DNA of 64,000 bases from Patescibacteria group bacterium (GTDB lineage: Bacteria; Patescibacteriota; Patescibacteriia; Patescibacteriales; GWC2-42-12). The stretch covers positions 65,331 to 129,330 of the forward strand of contig JBAZRI010000003.1 of NCBI GenBank assembly GCA_041662965.1, in the 5' to 3' direction. The notes below the pieces were generated by a model. That model searched no databases and had not been told where the DNA came from. It saw only the letters and a program-made list of their open reading frames with translations. Each line of letters begins with the position of its first letter. Within the stretch, counting starts at the first letter, position 1. Below, piece after piece: positions 100 through 64,000 of the stretch. The position numbers and the translations under genes are program-made.

Positions 100-3000
100 T
101 TAATCCGCTTTCTGTCGATACCCCGTGCCCGCCGGAATCGGCCGGCCGATAATGACATTTTCTTTAAGCCCTTCAAGATGATCAACCTTGCCGGTAACCG
201 CCGCGTCAATCAAGACTCTGGCGGTTTCCTGGAACGAAGCCGCTGATAAAAAGCTATTGGTGGTGAGCGATGATTTGGTTATGCCTAATAACAACTCTTC
301 GCCCTTGGCCGGCTTTTTATCTTTAGCTTTTACCTCTTCATTGGTCCGGTCAAAAATCGCTTTTTCTACGATTTCTCCGGGCAATAACTCCGTATCGCCG
401 GCGTCATTAACATAAACGCGCGCGAACATTTGTCTAGCGATTATCTCTATATGCTTGTCATTCAGCGGCTGGCCCTGGGAGGAATAAACGTACTGAATTT
501 CTTTAATAATATATTTTTGCGCTTCTAATTTGCCGCGCAGCTGGTACAATTGATGCAGATCCAAAGAGCCCTCGGTTAATTGGTCGCCAATTTTAACTTC
601 GTCGCCATCTTTAACCCAAACGCCAAAGCCTTTCGGCACGATAAACTCTTTAACCTTTTCCACGTCGCTCACAACTTTAATTAATTTTTCATTTAATTTA
701 ACCACGCCGGCCTTTCTGGCTTTAAAAACTTTTTTGCCGATAGCGAACAATTCGCTGTTTTTAACGACTTCGGCGCCGTCTTTAACCAATATTTTTACGT
801 CTTTCTTTTTATTGTCTTTATCTTCTAGAGAGGCTTCCTTAACCGCTTCGGTAAAATAATATTTATCGCTTTCCGCGCCTTGATAATATATCTTTAAAAT
901 TTTTGATTGCGGATTGGAAATAATCATTTCTCCGGCTTCGCCGGCGATTGTCCTTTGCGCCGTCTCAATTTTAACCTTGCCGGCAACGTCGGCGACAAAA
1001 GCTTTCTTTTTCGGCGGGCGCCCTTCAAAAATTTCTTCAACGCGAGGCAGACCTTGGGTAATATCTTCTTGGCCGGCTACGCCGCCGGTATGGAAGGTTC
1101 TCATGGTAAGCTGAGTTCCCGGCTCGCCGATTGACTGAGCCGCAATAATGCCTACGGCCGTGCCGATCGCTACCTTCTTGTTATATGCCAGGTCATAGCC
1201 ATAACATTTAGCGCAGATGCCACGGTGTATTTTACAAGTCAAAACCGATCTGACTTTGACTTCTAAAATATCTTCTTTAGCAATTTTTTCCCCGAGCTCT
1301 TCGGTAACTAGTTCCCCGGCTTTTATTAAAACCTTGCCTTTTGCGTTTTTTAAATCAGCGGCTAAAAATCTGCCGGTCATGCGCTTAACCAAGTTTTCAC
1401 CCATCTCTTCGCTTTCTTTTTTAATAATTAACAAGCCTTCTTTGTCTCCGCAATCATCTTTGACGATTATGACATCTTGGGAAACATCAACTAAGCGCCT
1501 GGTTAAATAACCGGCGTTAGAAGTACGGAGAGCCGTATCGGATAAACCTTTGCGTACGCCGTGCGTGGCGATAAAATATTCAAGAACCGAGAAGCCTTGC
1601 TTAAAATTTCCTTTAACCGGCAATTCAATAATGTCGCCGGACGGAGAAGTTACCAAGCCCTTCATGCCTAAAATTTGCGTCAGCTGGGCCCAGGAACCGC
1701 GAGCGCCTGATTCAATCATGGAATAAACCGGCCCGTCTTTCGGCAGATGGTGGCGGCAGATTTCCGTTACTTTTTCTTTGACCGTGGTCCAAAGCTCAAT
1801 AATTTTGCTGTAGCGCTCGCTGTCGGTTAACAATCCGTCATGATATTGCTCGCTGATTTCTTCAGCTTGCTTGGAAGCTTGAACCAGCATTTCGTCTTTC
1901 TCGTAAAGATGAGGTATGTCGTCCATGCCCCAGGATAAACCGCTTTTGGTAATATATTTAAAACTAGCCTTTTTCAAACTATCCAATAAATCAATCGTCG
2001 GCTGTTCGCCGTAGAATCTTAAGCATTCTTTAACTAAATTTTTTAGCTTGCTCTTACCCACGGTTTCGTTGACGAATCGCAGTTTCGGCGGCAAAACTTC
2101 ATTAAAAATAATCCGGCCGACGGTAGTAATTATTAATTTGCCGTCTATCATCGCCCTGATTTTCTGCTGTAATTTTATATTTTTCATGCTGTAAGACAGC
2201 TTGGCATCTTCGGGCGAATAAAAATTTTTCAGCTTTTTTTCATCAGCGTCCAAATAGGCCTGGTCAATATTGGTAATATAAAAAGCTCCCCAAACAATAT
2301 CCTGGTTGGGCGCCACGACCGGATCGCCGGTAGCCGGCTTGAGTAAATTATGGCTGGCCAGCATGATATCGCGAGCTTCGGCGATCGCCTCTTCGGTTAA
2401 AGGCACGTGAACCGCCATTTGGTCGCCGTCAAAATCGGCGTTAAACGCTGTACAAACCAAAGGATTGATCTGGATAGCTAAACCTTCAATTAAAATCGGC
2501 TTAAACGCCTGGATGCCTAAGCGGTGCAAAGTCGGCGCGCGGTTTAACATCACATATGATTTTTTAACAATATCCTCAAGAATATCCCAAACCTCGTCTT
2601 TGCCTGATTCAATATAGCGGGAAGCGCTTCTGACGTTATGGACGATTTCTTTGTTTATCAGCTGGCTGATTATAAAAGGCTTGAATAATTCTAAAGCCAT
2701 GCGCTTAGGCAAACCGCATTGGTCTAAATTCAAATTCGGGTTGACGACGATTACGCTGCGGCCGGAATAATCAATTCTTTTGCCAAGTAAATTCTGTCTG
2801 AATCTGCCCTGCTTGCCTTTTAATGAATCGGCGAGCGACTTAAGCATTCTTTTCTGCCCGGTAGAGGCGACAACCGTTTTGCCGTGCCTGATAGAATTAT
2901 CAATTAAAGCGTCAACCGCTTCCTGAAGCATCCTTTTTTCATTGCGGCAGATAACTTCCGGCGCGTTAAGGTCAATCAGCTGTTTTAAGCGATTGTTGCG

Positions 3001-14665: not shown

Positions 14666-16072
14666 TCAGGCGGAAAATTTATCCCTGAAAAAATTATCCA
14701 AATCAGCTATTTTAACTCTCGCCTGTTCCATAGTATCGCGGTCGCGCACCGTTACGTCGCCTTTTTCCAAACTGTCAAAATCAACGGTTAAGCAATAAGG
14801 CGTGCCGATTTCATCCTGCCGGCGGTAGCGCTTGCCGATATTGCCGTGATCGTCAAATTCGCACATGTAATTAATTTTTAAATTTTTATAAATCTCTTTG
14901 GCTTTTTTAACCAGTTCCGGCTTATTTTTTAAAAGCGGGAAGATGGCGATTTTAATTGGCGCCAAATGCTTAGGAAATTTCATAACCACTCTAATTTCGC
15001 CTTTAACTTCTTCTTCAGAGTAGGCAAAATCAAGGAACATCAAAAGTAGCCGATTGAGTCCGACTGATGTTTCCATAATATGCGGAATAAATTTCTCGCC
15101 GGTTTTTTCATCGGTATAATTGAGTGGAACGCCGGAAAATTTTGCATGCTGGCTCAAATCCCAATTGCCTCTGGCGTGGATTCCTTCAACCTCGTCAAAT
15201 CCGCCGAATATTTTAAAATCGTACACAATATCGTAAGCCTCGGAAGCGTAATGAGCCAGTTTTTCGTGTTTAAACCATTTTATTTTATCCGCCGGAATGC
15301 CATTGGCTAAATACCACTGCCATCTTAAATCTTTCCACATTTCGTATTTCTCTTTCATCATGCTGGGATGGAGAAAATATTGCATTTCCATTTGCTCAAA
15401 TTCCCGCGTCCGAAAAATAAATTGCCGCGCTACAATTTCGTTTCGGAAAGCCTTGCCAACTTGGGCGATGCCGAACGGCAGTTTTTTATGGAGTGAATCG
15501 ACCGTATTTTTATATTCCAAATATATGCCGCCACAAGTTTCCGGCCTTAGATACACAACATTTTCTTCTTTTAGCTCTTCGGTCGGAGAACCGATGTTTG
15601 ATTTCACCATCAGCGAAAATATTTTCGCGTCGGTTAATTTATCCGAACCGCAATTAGGGCATTTTAACTTCTTCTTCTCCCGAAGTTCGGTCAAATGCTT
15701 ATTAATTTCTTCTAAAGTGGCTTTATCCGCTTCAATCCCGTAATTTTTCAGCAAATGATCCGCCCTAAATCTGTTTTTGCAATCTTTGCAGTCAATTTGA
15801 GGATCATTAAAACCGCCCACGTGCCCGGAAGCCACCCAGGTTGTCGGATGCATAAAAATCGCGCTATCAAGGCCGACAACATCATCCCGCGTTTGAATCA
15901 TGCTTTTCCACCACGAATCACGGATATTATTTTTTAACAGCGTTCCATAATGGCCATAATCATAAATCGCCGCCAAGCCGCCGTAAATTTCCGAAGACGG
16001 ATACACAAACCCCCGCCGCTTGCATAAAGAAGCGATTTTTTCCAATGTTGTGTTATCCTTTTTATTTGCCAT
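14666..16072 (-). CDS. glyQS: Glycine--tRNA ligase (dimeric class II GlyQS type)
   Basis: 468 aa with a typical N-terminus (RRGFVYPSSEIYGG) and class II motifs. Confidence 0.9.
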   Translation of the reverse strand: MANKKDNTTLEKIASLCKRRGFVYPSSEIYGGLAAIYDYGHYGTLLKNNIRDSWWKSMIQTRDDVVGLDSAIFMHPTTWVASGHVGGFNDPQIDCKDCKNRFRADHLLKNYGIEADKATLEEINKHLTELREKKKLKCPNCGSDKLTDAKIFSLMVKSNIGSPTEELKEENVVYLRPETCGGIYLEYKNTVDSLHKKLPFGIAQVGKAFRNEIVARQFIFRTREFEQMEMQYFLHPSMMKEKYEMWKDLRWQWYLANGIPADKIKWFKHEKLAHYASEAYDIVYDFKIFGGFDEVEGIHARGNWDLSQHAKFSGVPLNYTDEKTGEKFIPHIMETSVGLNRLLLMFLDFAYSEEEVKGEIRVVMKFPKHLAPIKIAIFPLLKNKPELVKKAKEIYKNLKINYMCEFDDHGNIGKRYRRQDEIGTPYCLTVDFDSLEKGDVTVRDRDTMEQARVKIADLDNFFRDKFSA

Positions 16073-31513: not shown

Positions 31514-31789
31514 AAAAAACCTCGTCTTCAAATAGAAAAAATTCTATTCAAGGACGAGGTTATTTAGTCTCGTGGTACCACCCTGATTCCCCAATTTTAT
31601 TATCGGAGCGCTCATTAAGCTATTTGCCCGCGGTAGCAAACCGCTCCGGCCTACTTAGGTTCAGCCGGCAATCTCCGGAAGCGCGTTCAGCATTACTGGC
31701 CTGCCGGGCTCGCACCATTACCCGGCTCGCTTAGAGGCTTAAATATTGCTTACTATTTTCCTTCAATGATTAGGTTGATTTTTAAGATC
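31514..31789 (-). promoter_or_regulatory. T-box riboswitch leader (specifier most likely CGC, Arg) with a terminator/antiterminator
   Basis: T-box sequence AATCAGGGTGGTACCACGAG (31569-31588). Stem I AG-bulge AGCGA and distal loop GGTGCGA. AGTA S-turn and GAA-CGC-G specifier loop. Terminator CCTCGTCC...GACGAGG plus T6 (31514-31559). Confidence 0.8.
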
Positions 31790-31795
31790 AATTAT

Positions 31796-31824
31796 ATTGT
31801 AATATATAAATAATTTTTTGTCAA
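31796..31824 (-). promoter_or_regulatory. Sigma-70-type promoter for the T-box leader
   Basis: TTGACA (31824-31819), a 17-nt spacer, and TACAAT (31801-31796). Confidence 0.6.
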
Positions 31825-33002: not shown

Positions 33003-34232
33003 ATGAAACAATCCCAACTTTTCACCAAAACTGAACGCTTCGCTCCTAAGGACGAAGAAACTATAAATGCTCAACTTTTAACGCGGGCCGGTTTTACCGA
33101 GAAGCTAATGGCCGGAGTCTATAATTACCTGCCCCTAGGGCTTTTGACCCTTAGGAAAATTGAACAGGTAGTTAGGGAAGAAATGAATAAAATCGGCGGA
33201 CAGGAAATTTTAATGGCCATGCTGCATCCTAAGGAAAACTGGGAGAAAACCGGTGGCTGGGATAATATTGACATTCTTTTTAAAATTAAAAGCCGAACGG
33301 AAAAAGAATACGCGCTGGGGCAAAGCGAAGAAGAAGTGGTTACTCCCCTAATCATGCACCGGGTGCAGACAAGCAAAAACCTACCTTTGGCGGTTTACCA
33401 GATTCATTGGAAATTCCGCGATGAGCTAAGGGCTAAATCAGGGCTCTTAAGAGGCCGGGAATTTTTAATGAAAGACATGTACAGTTTCCATGCCGATCAG
33501 GACGACTTTGATAAATTTTATAAAATCGCCAAACAGGCCTACTTAAAAATATTTGAACGCCTGGGCTTAACGGCAAAAGTGACCGAAGCTTCAGGCGGAA
33601 GTTTCAGTAAAAAAATATCCTATGAATTCATGGTTCTGACCGACGCCGGAGAAGACGATATTCTGTATTGCGATGAATGTGTTTTTTGCGTTAATAAAGA
33701 AATCGCCGAACAAAAAGAATTTGATTCTTGCCCGAAATGCAAAAAGGGCAAATTAAACCGCGCTAAAGCCTCCGAGGTTGGCAATGTTTTTGATTTAGGG
33801 CAAAAATACGGCCAAGATTTTGGCTTGTCATTCAAAGATGAAAAAGGAGCAAAAAAATATCCGGTTATGGGCTGTTATGGCATCGGCATCTCGCGCCTTA
33901 TCGGCGTAATTGTTGAAAAAATGCATGATGACAAGGGCATTATTTGGCCGGAAGCGGCCGCGCCGTTTAAAACCCATCTTATTTCTTTGGGGCAAAACGA
34001 GCGGGCGGAAAAAATTTATTCCGACTTGAACAAAAATCAAATTGAAGTTTTATATGACGACCGAGAAGTAAGCGCCGGCGAAAAATTCGCTGACGCGGAT
34101 TTAATCGGCCTGCCTTATCGCTTAGTGGTGAGCGAAAAATCTCTTAAAGCCGGCGGAGTTGAATTAAAAAAACGAGCGGAAAAAGAAAGTAAAATTATTG
34201 AAGAAAAGAATGTAATAAAAGAGTTAAAATAA
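33003..34232 (+). CDS. proS: Proline--tRNA ligase, short form lacking the INS editing domain
   Basis: 409 aa. Bacterial ProRS N-terminus (LLTRAGF...YNYLPLGL), class II motifs, and GCYGIGISR. The INS position is occupied by a ~37-aa CxxC...CxxC segment. Confidence 0.85.
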   Translation: MKQSQLFTKTERFAPKDEETINAQLLTRAGFTEKLMAGVYNYLPLGLLTLRKIEQVVREEMNKIGGQEILMAMLHPKENWEKTGGWDNIDILFKIKSRTEKEYALGQSEEEVVTPLIMHRVQTSKNLPLAVYQIHWKFRDELRAKSGLLRGREFLMKDMYSFHADQDDFDKFYKIAKQAYLKIFERLGLTAKVTEASGGSFSKKISYEFMVLTDAGEDDILYCDECVFCVNKEIAEQKEFDSCPKCKKGKLNRAKASEVGNVFDLGQKYGQDFGLSFKDEKGAKKYPVMGCYGIGISRLIGVIVEKMHDDKGIIWPEAAAPFKTHLISLGQNERAEKIYSDLNKNQIEVLYDDREVSAGEKFADADLIGLPYRLVVSEKSLKAGGVELKKRAEKESKIIEEKNVIKELK

Positions 34233-45452: not shown

Positions 45453-48395
45453 TTATATTTTTCTTATTCCTAACTTTACCATTTCCCCATTTACCTTAAT
45501 TCCCTCGCCTTTAACTTCGCTTTCCATTATTTTTTCGCATAAAACATCTCTTTTTAGCTCCTCTGCCATTTTTGCAAAAACATTTTTTATCAATTCACTA
45601 TCGCTCTGCCAGGACAAAACAATTTTATCTTTAATAGTCAACCCGGCGTTTTTGCGCATACTATTAACCATACGTACAATTTCCCGCTTTAAGCCTTCAA
45701 GCTTTAATTCGGGTGTTAAGGTCGTATCAATTTTAACTTCAATATTTCCATCGCCATATTCGCTAACAACATTTTTAACATTTAATTCATCTTTTATCAA
45801 TTCAACATATTCATCTCTTAATTCGTGGCTCGTAAATCGTAATTCCGAGAGCGGCTGCCTAACTTTAATGCCCGCTTTATCCCTTTCCGCTAATCCCAGC
45901 TCTACAATTTCTCTCACCATCTCCATCTGTGTAATTATTTTTATATCTTCGGCTTCCATCGGGTCGTTATATTCCACCCAAGCGGTTAAATGCACTGACT
46001 TATTTTCATCTTTAAAATTCAATCCGGTTACTTTCTGCCAAATAGTCTCGGCCATAAACGGCATAACCGGAGCGATAATTTTAGCTAATTCCAGCAAAAC
46101 AAACCTGGTTATTATAACCGCCGCTTTTTGATCGGCTTGATCGTCGGATTTAAATCTATCGCGCGATCTTCTTAAATACCAGGTAGAAAAATCATTGATA
46201 AAATCGCTTATCGGCCGAGTGGCTTTAGGCAGATTATAATTTTTCATGTTTTCGGTTACGTCTTTCGCTAAAATATTTAATTTCGCCAGTATCCATTTAT
46301 CCAAAATATTTTCGCCTTCCGGCCTGGCGCATTCTTCGCCGGCGGCTTCTTCCTGATACATTTCATAAAATTTATACACATTCCATAAAATCATGATATT
46401 TTTTCTGAAAACATCTCTTAAATCGCGCTCATTAAAAAATAAATTTTCCGCTTGCATCACGGCTGAACTCATTAAATAAAAACGCAAAGCGTCCACGCCG
46501 TATTCGTTAATCACTTTCCAGGGGTCGGGATAATTCTTTTTTGATTTGCTCATCTTATCGCCTTTTTCATTTAAAATTACGCCGGTGGCGATAACGTTTT
46601 CAAAGCTGTTGGAATCAAATAAAGCCGCGGCTAAGACGTGCATAACGTAAAACCAGGCCCTGGTCTGGGAAATATATTCGCTGATGAATTGCGCGGGAAA
46701 ATTGGCTTCAAATTTTTCTTTATTGGCAAATGGATAATGCATTTGAGCGAAAGACATGGAGCCGGATTCTACCCAGCAATCCAAAACTTCGCTGATGCGT
46801 TTCATCTGGCCGTCGCGCTTGGCGCATGGCCAGGTTAAGCCGCTAACTTTATGGATATGAATATCGGTAATATTTTTCTCACCGCTTTTTTCTTGCAATT
46901 CTTTAACCGAGCCGATTACTTCCAGCTCACCGCATTTATCGCATTGCCAAACCGGAATCGGCGTGCCGAAATAGCGGTTGCGTGAAATATTCCAGTCCGG
47001 CGCCTGCTCAATGCCTAAAGCGAACCTCCCCCCTTTTAAATATTCAGGGAACCAATTTATCCGTTCGTTTAATTCCAACATCCGCTTTTTTAGTTTGCTG
47101 ACGGCCATAAACCAGGCTGGAATGGCGTTATAAAATAATTGGGTATCACAGCGATGGCAAAATGGATAAGAATGGGTTGTTTGTTCGGTGGTAAAAACCA
47201 AGCCGCGCTTTTCTAAATCTTCAATTACCATTTTATTGGCTTTTTTAAAATATATGCCCTTAAATTTTGGCACGGTTTCGTTAAAAATCCCTTTTTCGTC
47301 CAGCATGGGTATAACCGGCAAATCATATTTTAAGCCAAGGTTGTAATCGTCTTCGCCATAAACCACGGCCGTATGCACTACGCCCGTACCGTCTTCGGTG
47401 GTAACGAAATCAGCCGCGAAAACTTTATAAACCGGTTTGCCACTATCCTTAAACGCCGGCACTTCAAATAATGGCTCGTATTCCAAACCAACCAAATCTT
47501 TACCCTTAATGTCATCGTGCACAATCTCAATTTCTTTATTTTTGAAAATTACGCCGGACAAAACTTTTGAGGCGGCAATTAACATCTCTTTTACTCCTTT
47601 AATCCTGAAGGCAGTATAATCAATATCTTCTCCGACCGCTAAGGCCACATTTCCCGGAAGCGTCCAGGGGGTGGTTGTCCAGGCGAGTATATAAGCTGAA
47701 TCTTTTGTTTCTTTGCCTTCGCCGTATTTTTGGCCTGGCTTTAATTTAAATTTCGCATAAACACTCTGTTCGGTTATTTCTTTATAACTATTATCCATAG
47801 CCACTTCAAAATTGGAAATCGGGGTTTCGCATCTGGGACAATAAAGTTGGACTTTCCGGCCCTGATAAATCAAGTCTTTTTCCCATAAATTCTTAAAGGC
47901 CCACCAGACCGATTCCATATAATTAACATCCATGGTTTTATAAGAATCTTTAAATTCCACCCAGCGGCCGATGCGCCGGATCATAACTTCCCAGATGTCG
48001 GCGTATTCTAAAACGCGCGAACGGCAGGTTTCGCAAAACTCTCCCACGCCGATTTTTTCAATTTCTTTTTTGCCGCTGATTTTTAAATCCTGCTCAATGA
48101 TATTTTCAATCGGCAGGCCGTGGCAATCCCAGCCCCAGCGCCGCTCAACGCGGTAGCCCTGCATAGTCCAAAATCTAGGTATAACGTCTTTGGAAATGCT
48201 GGATAAGAGATGCCCGTAATGCGGCTCGCCCGTGCCGAACGGCGGGCCGTCATAAAAAACATAATCGCCCCGCGGCGCGGATTTTTCAACTGACTTCTTA
48301 AAAATTTCATTTTTATCCCAAAAATTCAAAACCTCCTCTTCCATAGCCGGAAAAGGGCTTTTAATCTGTTCTCTTTCCTGTTTTTTATTAGGCAT
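45453..48395 (-). CDS. ileS: Isoleucine--tRNA ligase
   Basis: 980 aa with the HIGH-type motif (PHYGHLL), KMSKS, and a CP1 editing domain. Confidence 0.93.
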   Translation of the reverse strand: MPNKKQEREQIKSPFPAMEEEVLNFWDKNEIFKKSVEKSAPRGDYVFYDGPPFGTGEPHYGHLLSSISKDVIPRFWTMQGYRVERRWGWDCHGLPIENIIEQDLKISGKKEIEKIGVGEFCETCRSRVLEYADIWEVMIRRIGRWVEFKDSYKTMDVNYMESVWWAFKNLWEKDLIYQGRKVQLYCPRCETPISNFEVAMDNSYKEITEQSVYAKFKLKPGQKYGEGKETKDSAYILAWTTTPWTLPGNVALAVGEDIDYTAFRIKGVKEMLIAASKVLSGVIFKNKEIEIVHDDIKGKDLVGLEYEPLFEVPAFKDSGKPVYKVFAADFVTTEDGTGVVHTAVVYGEDDYNLGLKYDLPVIPMLDEKGIFNETVPKFKGIYFKKANKMVIEDLEKRGLVFTTEQTTHSYPFCHRCDTQLFYNAIPAWFMAVSKLKKRMLELNERINWFPEYLKGGRFALGIEQAPDWNISRNRYFGTPIPVWQCDKCGELEVIGSVKELQEKSGEKNITDIHIHKVSGLTWPCAKRDGQMKRISEVLDCWVESGSMSFAQMHYPFANKEKFEANFPAQFISEYISQTRAWFYVMHVLAAALFDSNSFENVIATGVILNEKGDKMSKSKKNYPDPWKVINEYGVDALRFYLMSSAVMQAENLFFNERDLRDVFRKNIMILWNVYKFYEMYQEEAAGEECARPEGENILDKWILAKLNILAKDVTENMKNYNLPKATRPISDFINDFSTWYLRRSRDRFKSDDQADQKAAVIITRFVLLELAKIIAPVMPFMAETIWQKVTGLNFKDENKSVHLTAWVEYNDPMEAEDIKIITQMEMVREIVELGLAERDKAGIKVRQPLSELRFTSHELRDEYVELIKDELNVKNVVSEYGDGNIEVKIDTTLTPELKLEGLKREIVRMVNSMRKNAGLTIKDKIVLSWQSDSELIKNVFAKMAEELKRDVLCEKIMESEVKGEGIKVNGEMVKLGIRKI

Positions 48396-61386: not shown

Positions 61387-64000
<2,614 letters not shown>

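Follow-up and report, generated by a model that had tools for sequence, protein, structure and literature searches.

A T-box leader and a putative second attenuator upstream of a lone N-acetylglutamate synthase-like gene in a Patescibacteria clade

The window analyzed here is a 64,000-nucleotide stretch of contig JBAZRI010000003.1 (GenBank assembly GCA_041662965.1, positions 65,331 to 129,330) from a Patescibacteria group bacterium. Near its middle lies a regulatory locus whose parts are all encoded on the minus strand: a promoter, a T-box riboswitch leader with its own terminator, a second terminator/antiterminator element, a spacer, and a gene for an acetyltransferase of the GNAT family resembling N-acetylglutamate synthases (NAGS). 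An earlier reading of the same DNA, made from the letters alone (hereafter the sequence-only reading), had described the T-box and the gene and implied that one directly adjoins the other. About 240 nt separate the T-box terminator from the GNAT start codon, and the second conserved element (31448-31372), missed at that time, is located between them. The host had been taken for a member of the candidate phyla radiation (CPR), and the downstream protein is indeed annotated as 'MAG: GNAT family N-acetyltransferase [Patescibacteria group bacterium]'. We consider it probable that an arginine T-box and a second switch jointly gate the expression of this lone gene.

The T-box leader and its conservation

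A cmscan search against Rfam returned an RF00230 (T-box) match at 31775-31547, extending untruncated over model positions 1-219 with a score of 115.2 bits (E = 9e-25), well beyond the gathering score of 93 bits. The domains aligned to the model comprised the K-turn, the specifier loop with its AGUA/GAA S-turn, the AG bulge, the distal loop, Stem II with a GAA...AGUA S-turn, the IIA/B pseudoknot region, Stem III and the T-box sequence. The set of motifs together with the RF00230 score is well above chance expectation, and the leader is an ordinary full-length transcriptional member of the family, with Stem II. It is preceded by a sigma-70-type promoter, TTGACA-17-TACAAT (31824-31796), which matches the consensus at 11 of 12 positions and was the top promoter-like site in a 2-kb scan; in the aligned related loci TTGACA is invariant and the -10 box is TAYWAT-like.

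The individual motifs listed in the sequence-only reading were recovered on the minus strand, including the promoter and, in Stem I, the GGAA/UUCC base, the AGUA S-turn, the AG bulge AGCGA at 31731 and GGUGCGA in the distal loop. The T-box sequence AAUCAGGGUGGUACCACGAG (31588-31569) aligns to model positions of about 183-200, and its UGGU bulge (31580-31577) could pair with the ACCA 3' end of a tRNA. The terminator hairpin with its U6 tract (31559-31514) folds at -22.9 kcal/mol (z = -8.2 vs shuffles), compared with -9.8 kcal/mol for the antiterminator, which carries a 7-nt UGGUACC bulge. The 5' strand of the terminator, CCUCGUCC, is also part of the antiterminator; the two folds are therefore mutually exclusive, as had been claimed.

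Even at E ≤ 1e-3, no other T-box was detected in the window. Hence the three aminoacyl-tRNA synthetase genes of the window, one of class I (45453-48395) and two of class II (14666-16072 and 33003-34232), named in the sequence-only reading as ileS, glyQS and proS, have no T-box before them at this threshold, in agreement with that reading.

Conservation of the leader was studied in contigs encoding GNAT homologues of 61-88% identity. Using as the criterion either an RF00230 match or the presence of the same motifs, ten further distinct leaders were found upstream of the orthologous GNAT (L003, L005, L007, L008, L016, L017, L018, L019, L037, and L039; L005 is the same as L013 and L008 the same as L021, and the L016 leader is cut at its 5' end). 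RF00230 scores of the orthologous leaders ranged from 100 to 127 bits. The flanking genes vary between the contigs, which indicates that leader and GNAT form a conserved unit. RNAalifold on eight orthologous leaders gave 79 pairs; ten showed compensatory double changes, and most of these ten lie in Stem I. Neither the UGGU bulge nor the specifier strand GAACGCGC varied in 11 loci, GGGUGGUACC was invariant in all loci, and the T-box terminator was nearly invariant in the eight loci. Mean pairwise DNA identity in ten loci was 83% for the Stem I/II half of the leader and 90% for the T-box 3' half vs 71% for the GNAT coding sequence; the RNA is therefore constrained more than the protein. T-boxes were also sought before distant GNAT homologues and this candidate was rejected, the Cohnella locus L035 and L036 being devoid of T-box motifs.

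Membership in the T-box family, the alternative structures and their conservation are thereby established. The presence of a covarying T-box before one orthologous gene in 11 contigs means that tRNA-sensing riboregulation operates in reduced CPR genomes. A short T-box before thrS in a related contig (L013, 927-763 on the minus strand, and the same region in L005; 49.5 bits, which is under the Rfam cut-off, E 5e-10) likewise suggests T-box regulation in CPR genomes. It is transcribed divergently from the GNAT leader; its Stem I is reduced to a hairpin with an ACC-A loop, the bulge is UGGA, and a terminator with a U-run follows.

Specifier codon and the regulated acetyltransferase

The 3' strand of the specifier loop (31688-31681) presents eight unpaired bases, GAA CGC G C, followed by the stem strand UUCC. 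With CGC at 31685-31683 read as the specifier, the T-box is very probably specific for tRNA-Arg, as far as the sequence can tell. The specifier codon of a T-box stands directly before a conserved purine, and in Stem-II-containing T-boxes its third base is overwhelmingly C (PMC7583486). CGC is favored because CGC-G, which ends in C and has a purine next, obeys both rules, whereas the overlapping GCG-C ends in G, is followed by a pyrimidine and breaks both. It is also favored because it is the commonest Arg specifier in TBDB (52%), while GCG is rare among Ala specifiers (1%).

The register was calibrated on eight T-boxes whose target is known; their source was Firmicutes chromosomes filed as plasmids by mistake. 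The layouts were GAA-GUC-G-stem in P. polymyxa valS, GAA-CUC-C-stem in Brevibacillus leuS, GAA-CUC-A-stem in Niallia leuA, GAA-GCU-A-A-stem in Acetoanaerobium alaS, GAA-UUC-A-C-stem in Bacillus sp. pheS, GAA-CAU-UUC-A-C-stem in Listeria pheS, AG-AUC-A-G-stem in B. velezensis ileS, and, ambiguously, GAA-GGG-A-G or GAA-G-GGA-G in Peptoclostridium glyS. The codon followed immediately after GAA in five of the eight (valS, leuS, leuA, alaS and Bacillus pheS), a purine normally followed the cognate codon, and an extra base preceded the stem in half of the set. The NNC-R-N-stem layout was seen in Bacillus pheS, Listeria pheS and B. velezensis ileS, with GCU-A-A-stem of Acetoanaerobium alaS as its equivalent. 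CGC is further favored because the Bacillus pheS T-box, for which cmscan puts the cognate UUC outside the consensus codon columns, is the exact counterpart of GAA-CGC-G-C-UUCC. The thrS T-box of L013 was considered as a further calibrator and rejected, being of the short-Stem-I type with ACC in the terminal loop, a different architecture.

The regulated gene (31273-30797) encodes a 158-aa GNAT acetyltransferase of the NAGS-like subfamily (Pfam Acetyltransf_1/7/10). It has its own Shine-Dalgarno sequence, AAAGGAGA (31287-31280), 6 nt before the ATG, and a terminator with an 11-bp stem and a T-run (30793-30766) right after the stop codon, so it is the only cistron of the unit; a separate promoter-like site (30663-30634) precedes the next gene. 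Apart from the generic N-acetyltransferase model PRK07757, which ranked first in NCBIfam (127 bits vs a cut-off of 154), the best NCBIfam, PDB-sequence and Foldseek matches were N-acetylglutamate synthases, and the description of the protein as a short ArgA-like GNAT stands. Single-protein PDB sequence matches were all NAGS or 'amino-acid acetyltransferase', as were the top four profile matches; with the family profile, N. gonorrhoeae 2r8v (E 7.6e-14), M. tuberculosis Rv2747 (E 1.6e-13) and Vibrio 3e0k were matched. The AlphaFold model (pLDDT 73) had 2r8v, 5yo2 and 5yge entries as its five top Foldseek matches (E about 1e-9 to 3e-10). Identity to the NAGS matches was 21-25%. 'ArgA-like' is correct as a family resemblance seen in sequence and predicted fold; the substrate of the enzyme and its role in arginine synthesis are putative.

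The CPR clade of this protein comprises 16 clusters, and its next relatives, at about 40% identity, belong to methanogens and Cohnella. A 36%-identical homologue from another organism (L036, GCA_007676345.1; 2501-2956, plus strand) lies beside argJ (1168-2322, minus strand) in divergent orientation; no other genomic tie between this protein family and arginine synthesis was encountered. In three related loci (L008 2657-2926, L010 165-446 and L017 1134-1418) a conserved ORF (open reading frame) of about 90 aa, with a mutual identity of 47-49%, lies between leader and GNAT. PADLOC and NCBIfam returned nothing for it, Pfam matches were all non-significant, and it is absent from the window and most other loci. 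The possibility that the GNAT is a tRNA-acetylating toxin with this ORF as its antitoxin was rejected because the ORF has no PADLOC/NCBIfam match and is absent from most loci and because the best matches of the GNAT are NAGS.

Two alternatives bear on the specificity of this unit and the task of its enzyme. The leader could be a tRNA-Ala T-box with the specifier GCG (31684-31682), one base before the stem. In TBDB, bases 2-4 of the specifier bulge, counted from its 3' end, are preferred (PMC7778990). Applied here, this rule yields GCG (Ala) by default and CGC (Arg) in both alternative frames; the RF00230 consensus columns yield GCG as well, the Rfam consensus 'GAAauuca' having the NNC-purine signature in those columns. 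UGGU implies the discriminator A73 (or G73), which fits tRNA-Ala as well as tRNA-Arg, and one Listeria T-box before an S-adenosylmethionine (SAM)-related gene can be read as GAA-A-AUG-G. No tRNA genes were found in the window or in the 16 related loci scanned, and comparison across loci cannot choose the register because GAACGCGC is identical in all 11. All this weighs against the Arg assignment; of the sequence-only claim, the segment GAA-CGC-G is in place and fits the rules and the calibration layouts, while the covariance-model columns dissent. An Ala T-box would, however, break both conserved rules, would use a triplet that is rare among Ala specifiers, and would depart from the prevailing GAA-codon layout, to which the alaS T-box of Acetoanaerobium (GAA-GCU-A) itself conforms. 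The conserved codons of the ORF downstream in the leader are Arg, not Ala, and the regulated target is NAGS-like, so that we regard the alanine alternative as unlikely.

With tRNA-Arg kept as the probable ligand, the GNAT might still act outside arginine biosynthesis, acetylating some other compound of importance when tRNA-Arg is uncharged, for example an arginine antimetabolite or an inhibitor of ArgRS, in a detoxifying role, or else an amine or a different amino acid. This is possible, if somewhat doubtful. CPR genomes usually lack amino-acid biosynthesis, and none of the 30 large ORFs of the window is another arginine-pathway gene; the earlier description of the gene as a coherent target for Arg-tRNA sensing thus retains the family resemblance and finds no pathway neighbor. 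The ArgHA, short ArgA and classical ArgA models ranked after PRK07757 and each fell under its cut-off (PRK07922 69 vs 180; TIGR01890 55 vs 203), so that the protein lies under the curated cut-offs of every NAGS model; these points count against a biosynthetic role. The nearest homologues outside CPR are named merely 'N-acetyltransferase', and an invariant C-terminal Cys motif (C134, C137 and C149) lies beyond the NAGS-aligned part, the structure alignments ending near query residue 135. On the other side, the leading sequence and fold matches are all NAGS, a distant homologue adjoins argJ, and hisG is kept in L007, so some of these genomes retain amino-acid pathway genes.

The second element and the proposed mechanism

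A 27-codon leader ORF (MAKNKIHAIINRRRATQTIFLRLFVSV, 31505-31422) begins 8 nt past the U-run of the T-box terminator. Its codons 12-14 are the arginine codons AGA CGC CGC (31472-31464), its codons 20-26 form the 5' arm of a long hairpin, and its stop codon is situated in the apical loop. The hairpin (31448-31383, segments 2:3) folds at -25.7 to -27.1 kcal/mol (z = -5.4) and would act as a second antiterminator: its 3' arm is at the same time the 5' arm of a second intrinsic terminator, AAGCGGCCU-CAAAA-AGGCCGUUU with a U-run (31397-31372; -12.6 kcal/mol), detected in the terminator scan. The hairpin is far more stable than terminator 2, hence readthrough is expected to be the default here, unlike in the T-box. 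The competing 1:2 pairing is weak (-5.4 kcal/mol), which means that the untranslated default is again readthrough and not super-attenuation. In constraint folding, a ribosome footprint at codons 12-14 left the antiterminator hairpin in place, and with the ribosome placed on codon 22 or on the stop codon, so that codon 20 onward was masked, only the terminator was left.

The second element was found in 12 sequences, with 92% identity per column. Terminator 2 with its U-run is kept in all 12 copies, and helix pairing across them amounts to 97.4% for the 2:3 hairpin and 97.2% for terminator 2. The leader ATG is conserved in 12/12, the ATG with its frame in 11/12, the RRR triplet in frame in 10/12, and all 27 codons with RRR in nine. 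Among the Arg codons, a CGC is replaced by the synonymous CGT in L019 and L037, and L011 encodes RRH (CGC to CAC); they are otherwise invariant. In L016 one T is lost, leaving an ORF of 20 codons that stops at a UGA inside the hairpin arm.

In L011 the element is present and no T-box was found in the 120 nt upstream, where the contig ends; the second element therefore appears to be a separable module. The contig concerned (L011/L020, 1-120; NCBI GCA_041666345.1, JBAYHE010000059.1) carries the second attenuator, region 3 and GNAT; either T-box loss or an assembly boundary may account for its structure. The element occurs in one copy in the window and was not detected in the viral contigs scanned; a pattern scan of GTDB species genomes returned one match, in a GC-rich contig without a T-box, which was discarded as due to chance.

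In alignments of related loci, the spacer that follows terminator 2 (region 3, 31371-31274) contains a conserved, near-perfect Shine-Dalgarno-like box, AAAGGAGGUGA (31356-31346), which according to RNAalifold pairs with UUAGUUCUUU just upstream, and a direct repeat, AGCGUAAAG(G/C)GUAAAC (31330-31315). A small ORF behind this box was considered and rejected, its start and stop codons not being conserved.

The geometry of hairpins, Arg codons and terminator suggests that the second element is a ribosome-read Arg attenuator acting in series with the T-box, with translation of the leader ORF predicted; we hold this for about an even prospect. Several observations speak against it. The ORF has no properly spaced Shine-Dalgarno sequence, the nearest GAGG being 14-15 nt upstream, inside the 3' arm of the T-box terminator, and no such sequence was found before the L011 ORF; the real genes of this organism have strong Shine-Dalgarno sites. 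In the L005 lineage a 1-nt deletion ends the ATG frame after six codons, and L005, a contig from ENA, and L013, one from JGI, carry this frameshift in identical sequence. Synonymous sites of the ORF show no excess of substitutions, and no compensatory changes were found in the second-switch helices of the 12 sequences, the helices hardly varying. These same facts, with the shortened ORF of L016 and the invariance of third codon positions, non-synonymous changes being as frequent as synonymous ones, favor a translation-independent element: either a constitutive hairpin of the 5' untranslated region (UTR), with a part in stabilizing or processing the mRNA, a cryptic terminator that stays unformed and an ORF conserved as a by-product, or an attenuator whose hairpin some other factor (a protein, an RNA or a ligand) would open. 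An Rfam scan of the spacer at a permissive E-value gave hairpin-like miRNA matches and a non-significant Phe_leader (E 0.26), and no significant family match, which agrees with that alternative. It has to be taken seriously, at somewhat less than even chances. The hairpin is, however, a plain long helix without aptamer-type junctions, and one of its arms is common with a U-run terminator present in every copy. Eleven of the 12 retain ATG, frame, Arg triplet and a stop located within segment 2 or shortly beyond it, the deletion downstream of the Arg codons in L005 is of 3 nt and preserves the frame, and AGA and CGC agree with the inferred specificity of the T-box.

A more radical alternative separates the gene from its leader: the T-box would control only a short transcript ending at terminator 2, a small RNA or peptide gene, and GNAT would be transcribed independently. 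A full intrinsic terminator between T-box and GNAT and the strong Shine-Dalgarno-like box of region 3 fit such a layout. Yet the promoter scan gave no minus-strand site between 31372 and 31273, and the antiterminator hairpin exceeds terminator 2 in stability by about 13 kcal/mol. GNAT, element 2 and the T-box co-occur in 11 contigs with differing neighbors, and two lineages have a shortened or disrupted small peptide. We regard this as very unlikely.

Under the ribosome-read reading, transcription from the promoter would produce a complete transcription-terminating T-box leader, in which the default outcome is formation of the strong terminator (31559-31514) and an end to transcription. When uncharged tRNA-Arg accumulates, its anticodon would pair with CGC and its free ACCA end with UGGU, both contacts stabilizing the weak antiterminator, so that RNA polymerase continues. 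About 10 nt further on it would meet the clade-specific second switch, of opposite default, where the 2:3 hairpin masks the 5' arm of terminator 2. The likeliest agent to open this hairpin is a ribosome translating the 27-codon ORF. With plentiful Arg-tRNA it would cross the 5' arm of the hairpin, terminator 2 would form, and the transcript would stop; with scarce Arg-tRNA it would stall at AGA-CGC-CGC, upstream of the hairpin, which would then stay closed and permit readthrough into GNAT. Two stages in series would make GNAT expression steeply dependent on the charging of arginine tRNA. Altogether, this Patescibacteria clade may possess a two-stage, protein-free arginine sensor, composed of a T-box and a ribosome-mediated attenuator, that gates a lone NAGS-like enzyme; we put forward this full version only tentatively.

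If true, the sensor would constitute an arginine-starvation response in organisms thought to be devoid of amino-acid biosynthesis. The T-box provides a functional handle on an uncharacterized GNAT, an enzyme that would be in demand while tRNA-Arg lacks its amino acid. Current understanding is left standing by these findings, whose value lies in a new host range, a new target and a tandem architecture that lends itself to testing.

Other features of the window and comparison with known systems

Two genes directly downstream of GNAT (30627-29893 and 29867-29577, minus strand) have their own promoter-like site; one encodes a MerR-type helix-turn-helix protein with a PADLOC mad1 (mads_1) match (E 1e-11), the other a small protein with a weak, below-cut-off match to the STAS-like DUF4325. 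Just past the GNAT stop, on the opposite strand, a weak Thr_leader match (34.8 bits vs a cut-off of 55, E 0.005) was seen in L015 (509-587) and L016 (934-1012), both on the minus strand of their contigs; it is probably only the common terminator hairpin. Further away, a 439-aa ORF (28629-27310, minus strand) has a radical-SAM (PF04055) call in the matching contig L001, and small ORFs of about 40-48 aa (28797-28651, minus strand) precede it, which could make up a peptide-modification cluster. A FemAB-family gene (10739-9768, minus strand) stands beside a Mur ligase gene. FemAB enzymes are aminoacyl-tRNA-dependent transferases of peptidoglycan peptide bridges, and the gene would add another tRNA-consuming function to this small genome. 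The window ends within a 23S rRNA gene (64000-61387, minus strand, cut at the edge), which has insertions relative to the bacterial model of about 80 nt near 64000-63920 and of 79 nt near 63750, and also contains a 5S rRNA gene (61310-61196, minus strand).

As an RNA, the leader has everything expected of an RF00230 T-box: all domains, a UGGN bulge, an antiterminator/terminator pair with a U-run, and the commonest Arg specifier of TBDB if CGC is read correctly. In a genome survey, more than 95% of T-boxes were found in Firmicutes, the rest being in Actinobacteria, Chloroflexi, Deinococcus and two Proteobacteria (PMC2494555). The present one differs in its Patescibacteria (CPR) host, in its target, a lone GNAT and not a synthetase, a recognized pathway operon or a transporter, and in the second attenuator that follows. 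Our literature search retrieved no paper linking T-boxes to CPR/Patescibacteria or to N-acetyltransferases. The novelty would consist in the host range and the lone-GNAT target; the T-box itself belongs to a known family, and the second attenuator, still unproven, is a moderately novel feature.

The regulated enzyme shares with M. tuberculosis Rv2747/ArgA (5yge, 5yo2) a single domain of about 160 aa, and Rv2747 and the GNAT domain of N. gonorrhoeae NAGS (2r8v) are its best sequence and fold matches. It differs from both in its low identity to them, in its scores below the NCBIfam cut-offs and in the extra conserved C-terminal Cys motif.

Among attenuators, those of the proteobacterial trp, his, leu, thr and pheA operons likewise combine a short ORF with tandem codons, competing hairpins, a U-run terminator and a geometry in which stalling spares the antiterminator. 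The second element differs in its weak 1:2 pairing, in readthrough as the default, and in lacking a well-placed Shine-Dalgarno sequence; the Rfam Trp, His, Leu, Thr and Phe_leader families gave no significant match, and Arg is not among them. Tandem riboswitches and tandem T-boxes also place two terminator-based switches in one 5' UTR, both of which must allow readthrough. Here the stages are mechanistically unlike and probably respond to the same signal.

Among known systems, the B. subtilis at (rtpA/yczA) operon comes closest to the tandem: its Trp T-box precedes a region in which ribosomes stall in a tRNA-dependent manner, according to the summary of Chen and Yanofsky (2003, 2004) contained in PMC10327191. 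As there, a T-box for uncharged tRNA is followed here, in series on one mRNA, by a short ORF whose three successive codons would, if the specifier is CGC, belong to the sensed amino acid and report on charged tRNA through ribosome stalling. In B. subtilis the rtpLP leader peptide has three Trp codons and controls the initiation of rtpA translation through the position of the ribosome near the Shine-Dalgarno sequence. The locus described here differs in probably sensing Arg instead of Trp, and in its second stage, which is predicted to act on transcription termination. Should the second attenuator be read by ribosomes, it would extend the only known design of T-box plus leader peptide, that of rtpA, to arginine and to transcription termination; to our knowledge, it would be the first known Arg leader-peptide attenuator and the first T-box/leader-peptide tandem to act twice on transcription.

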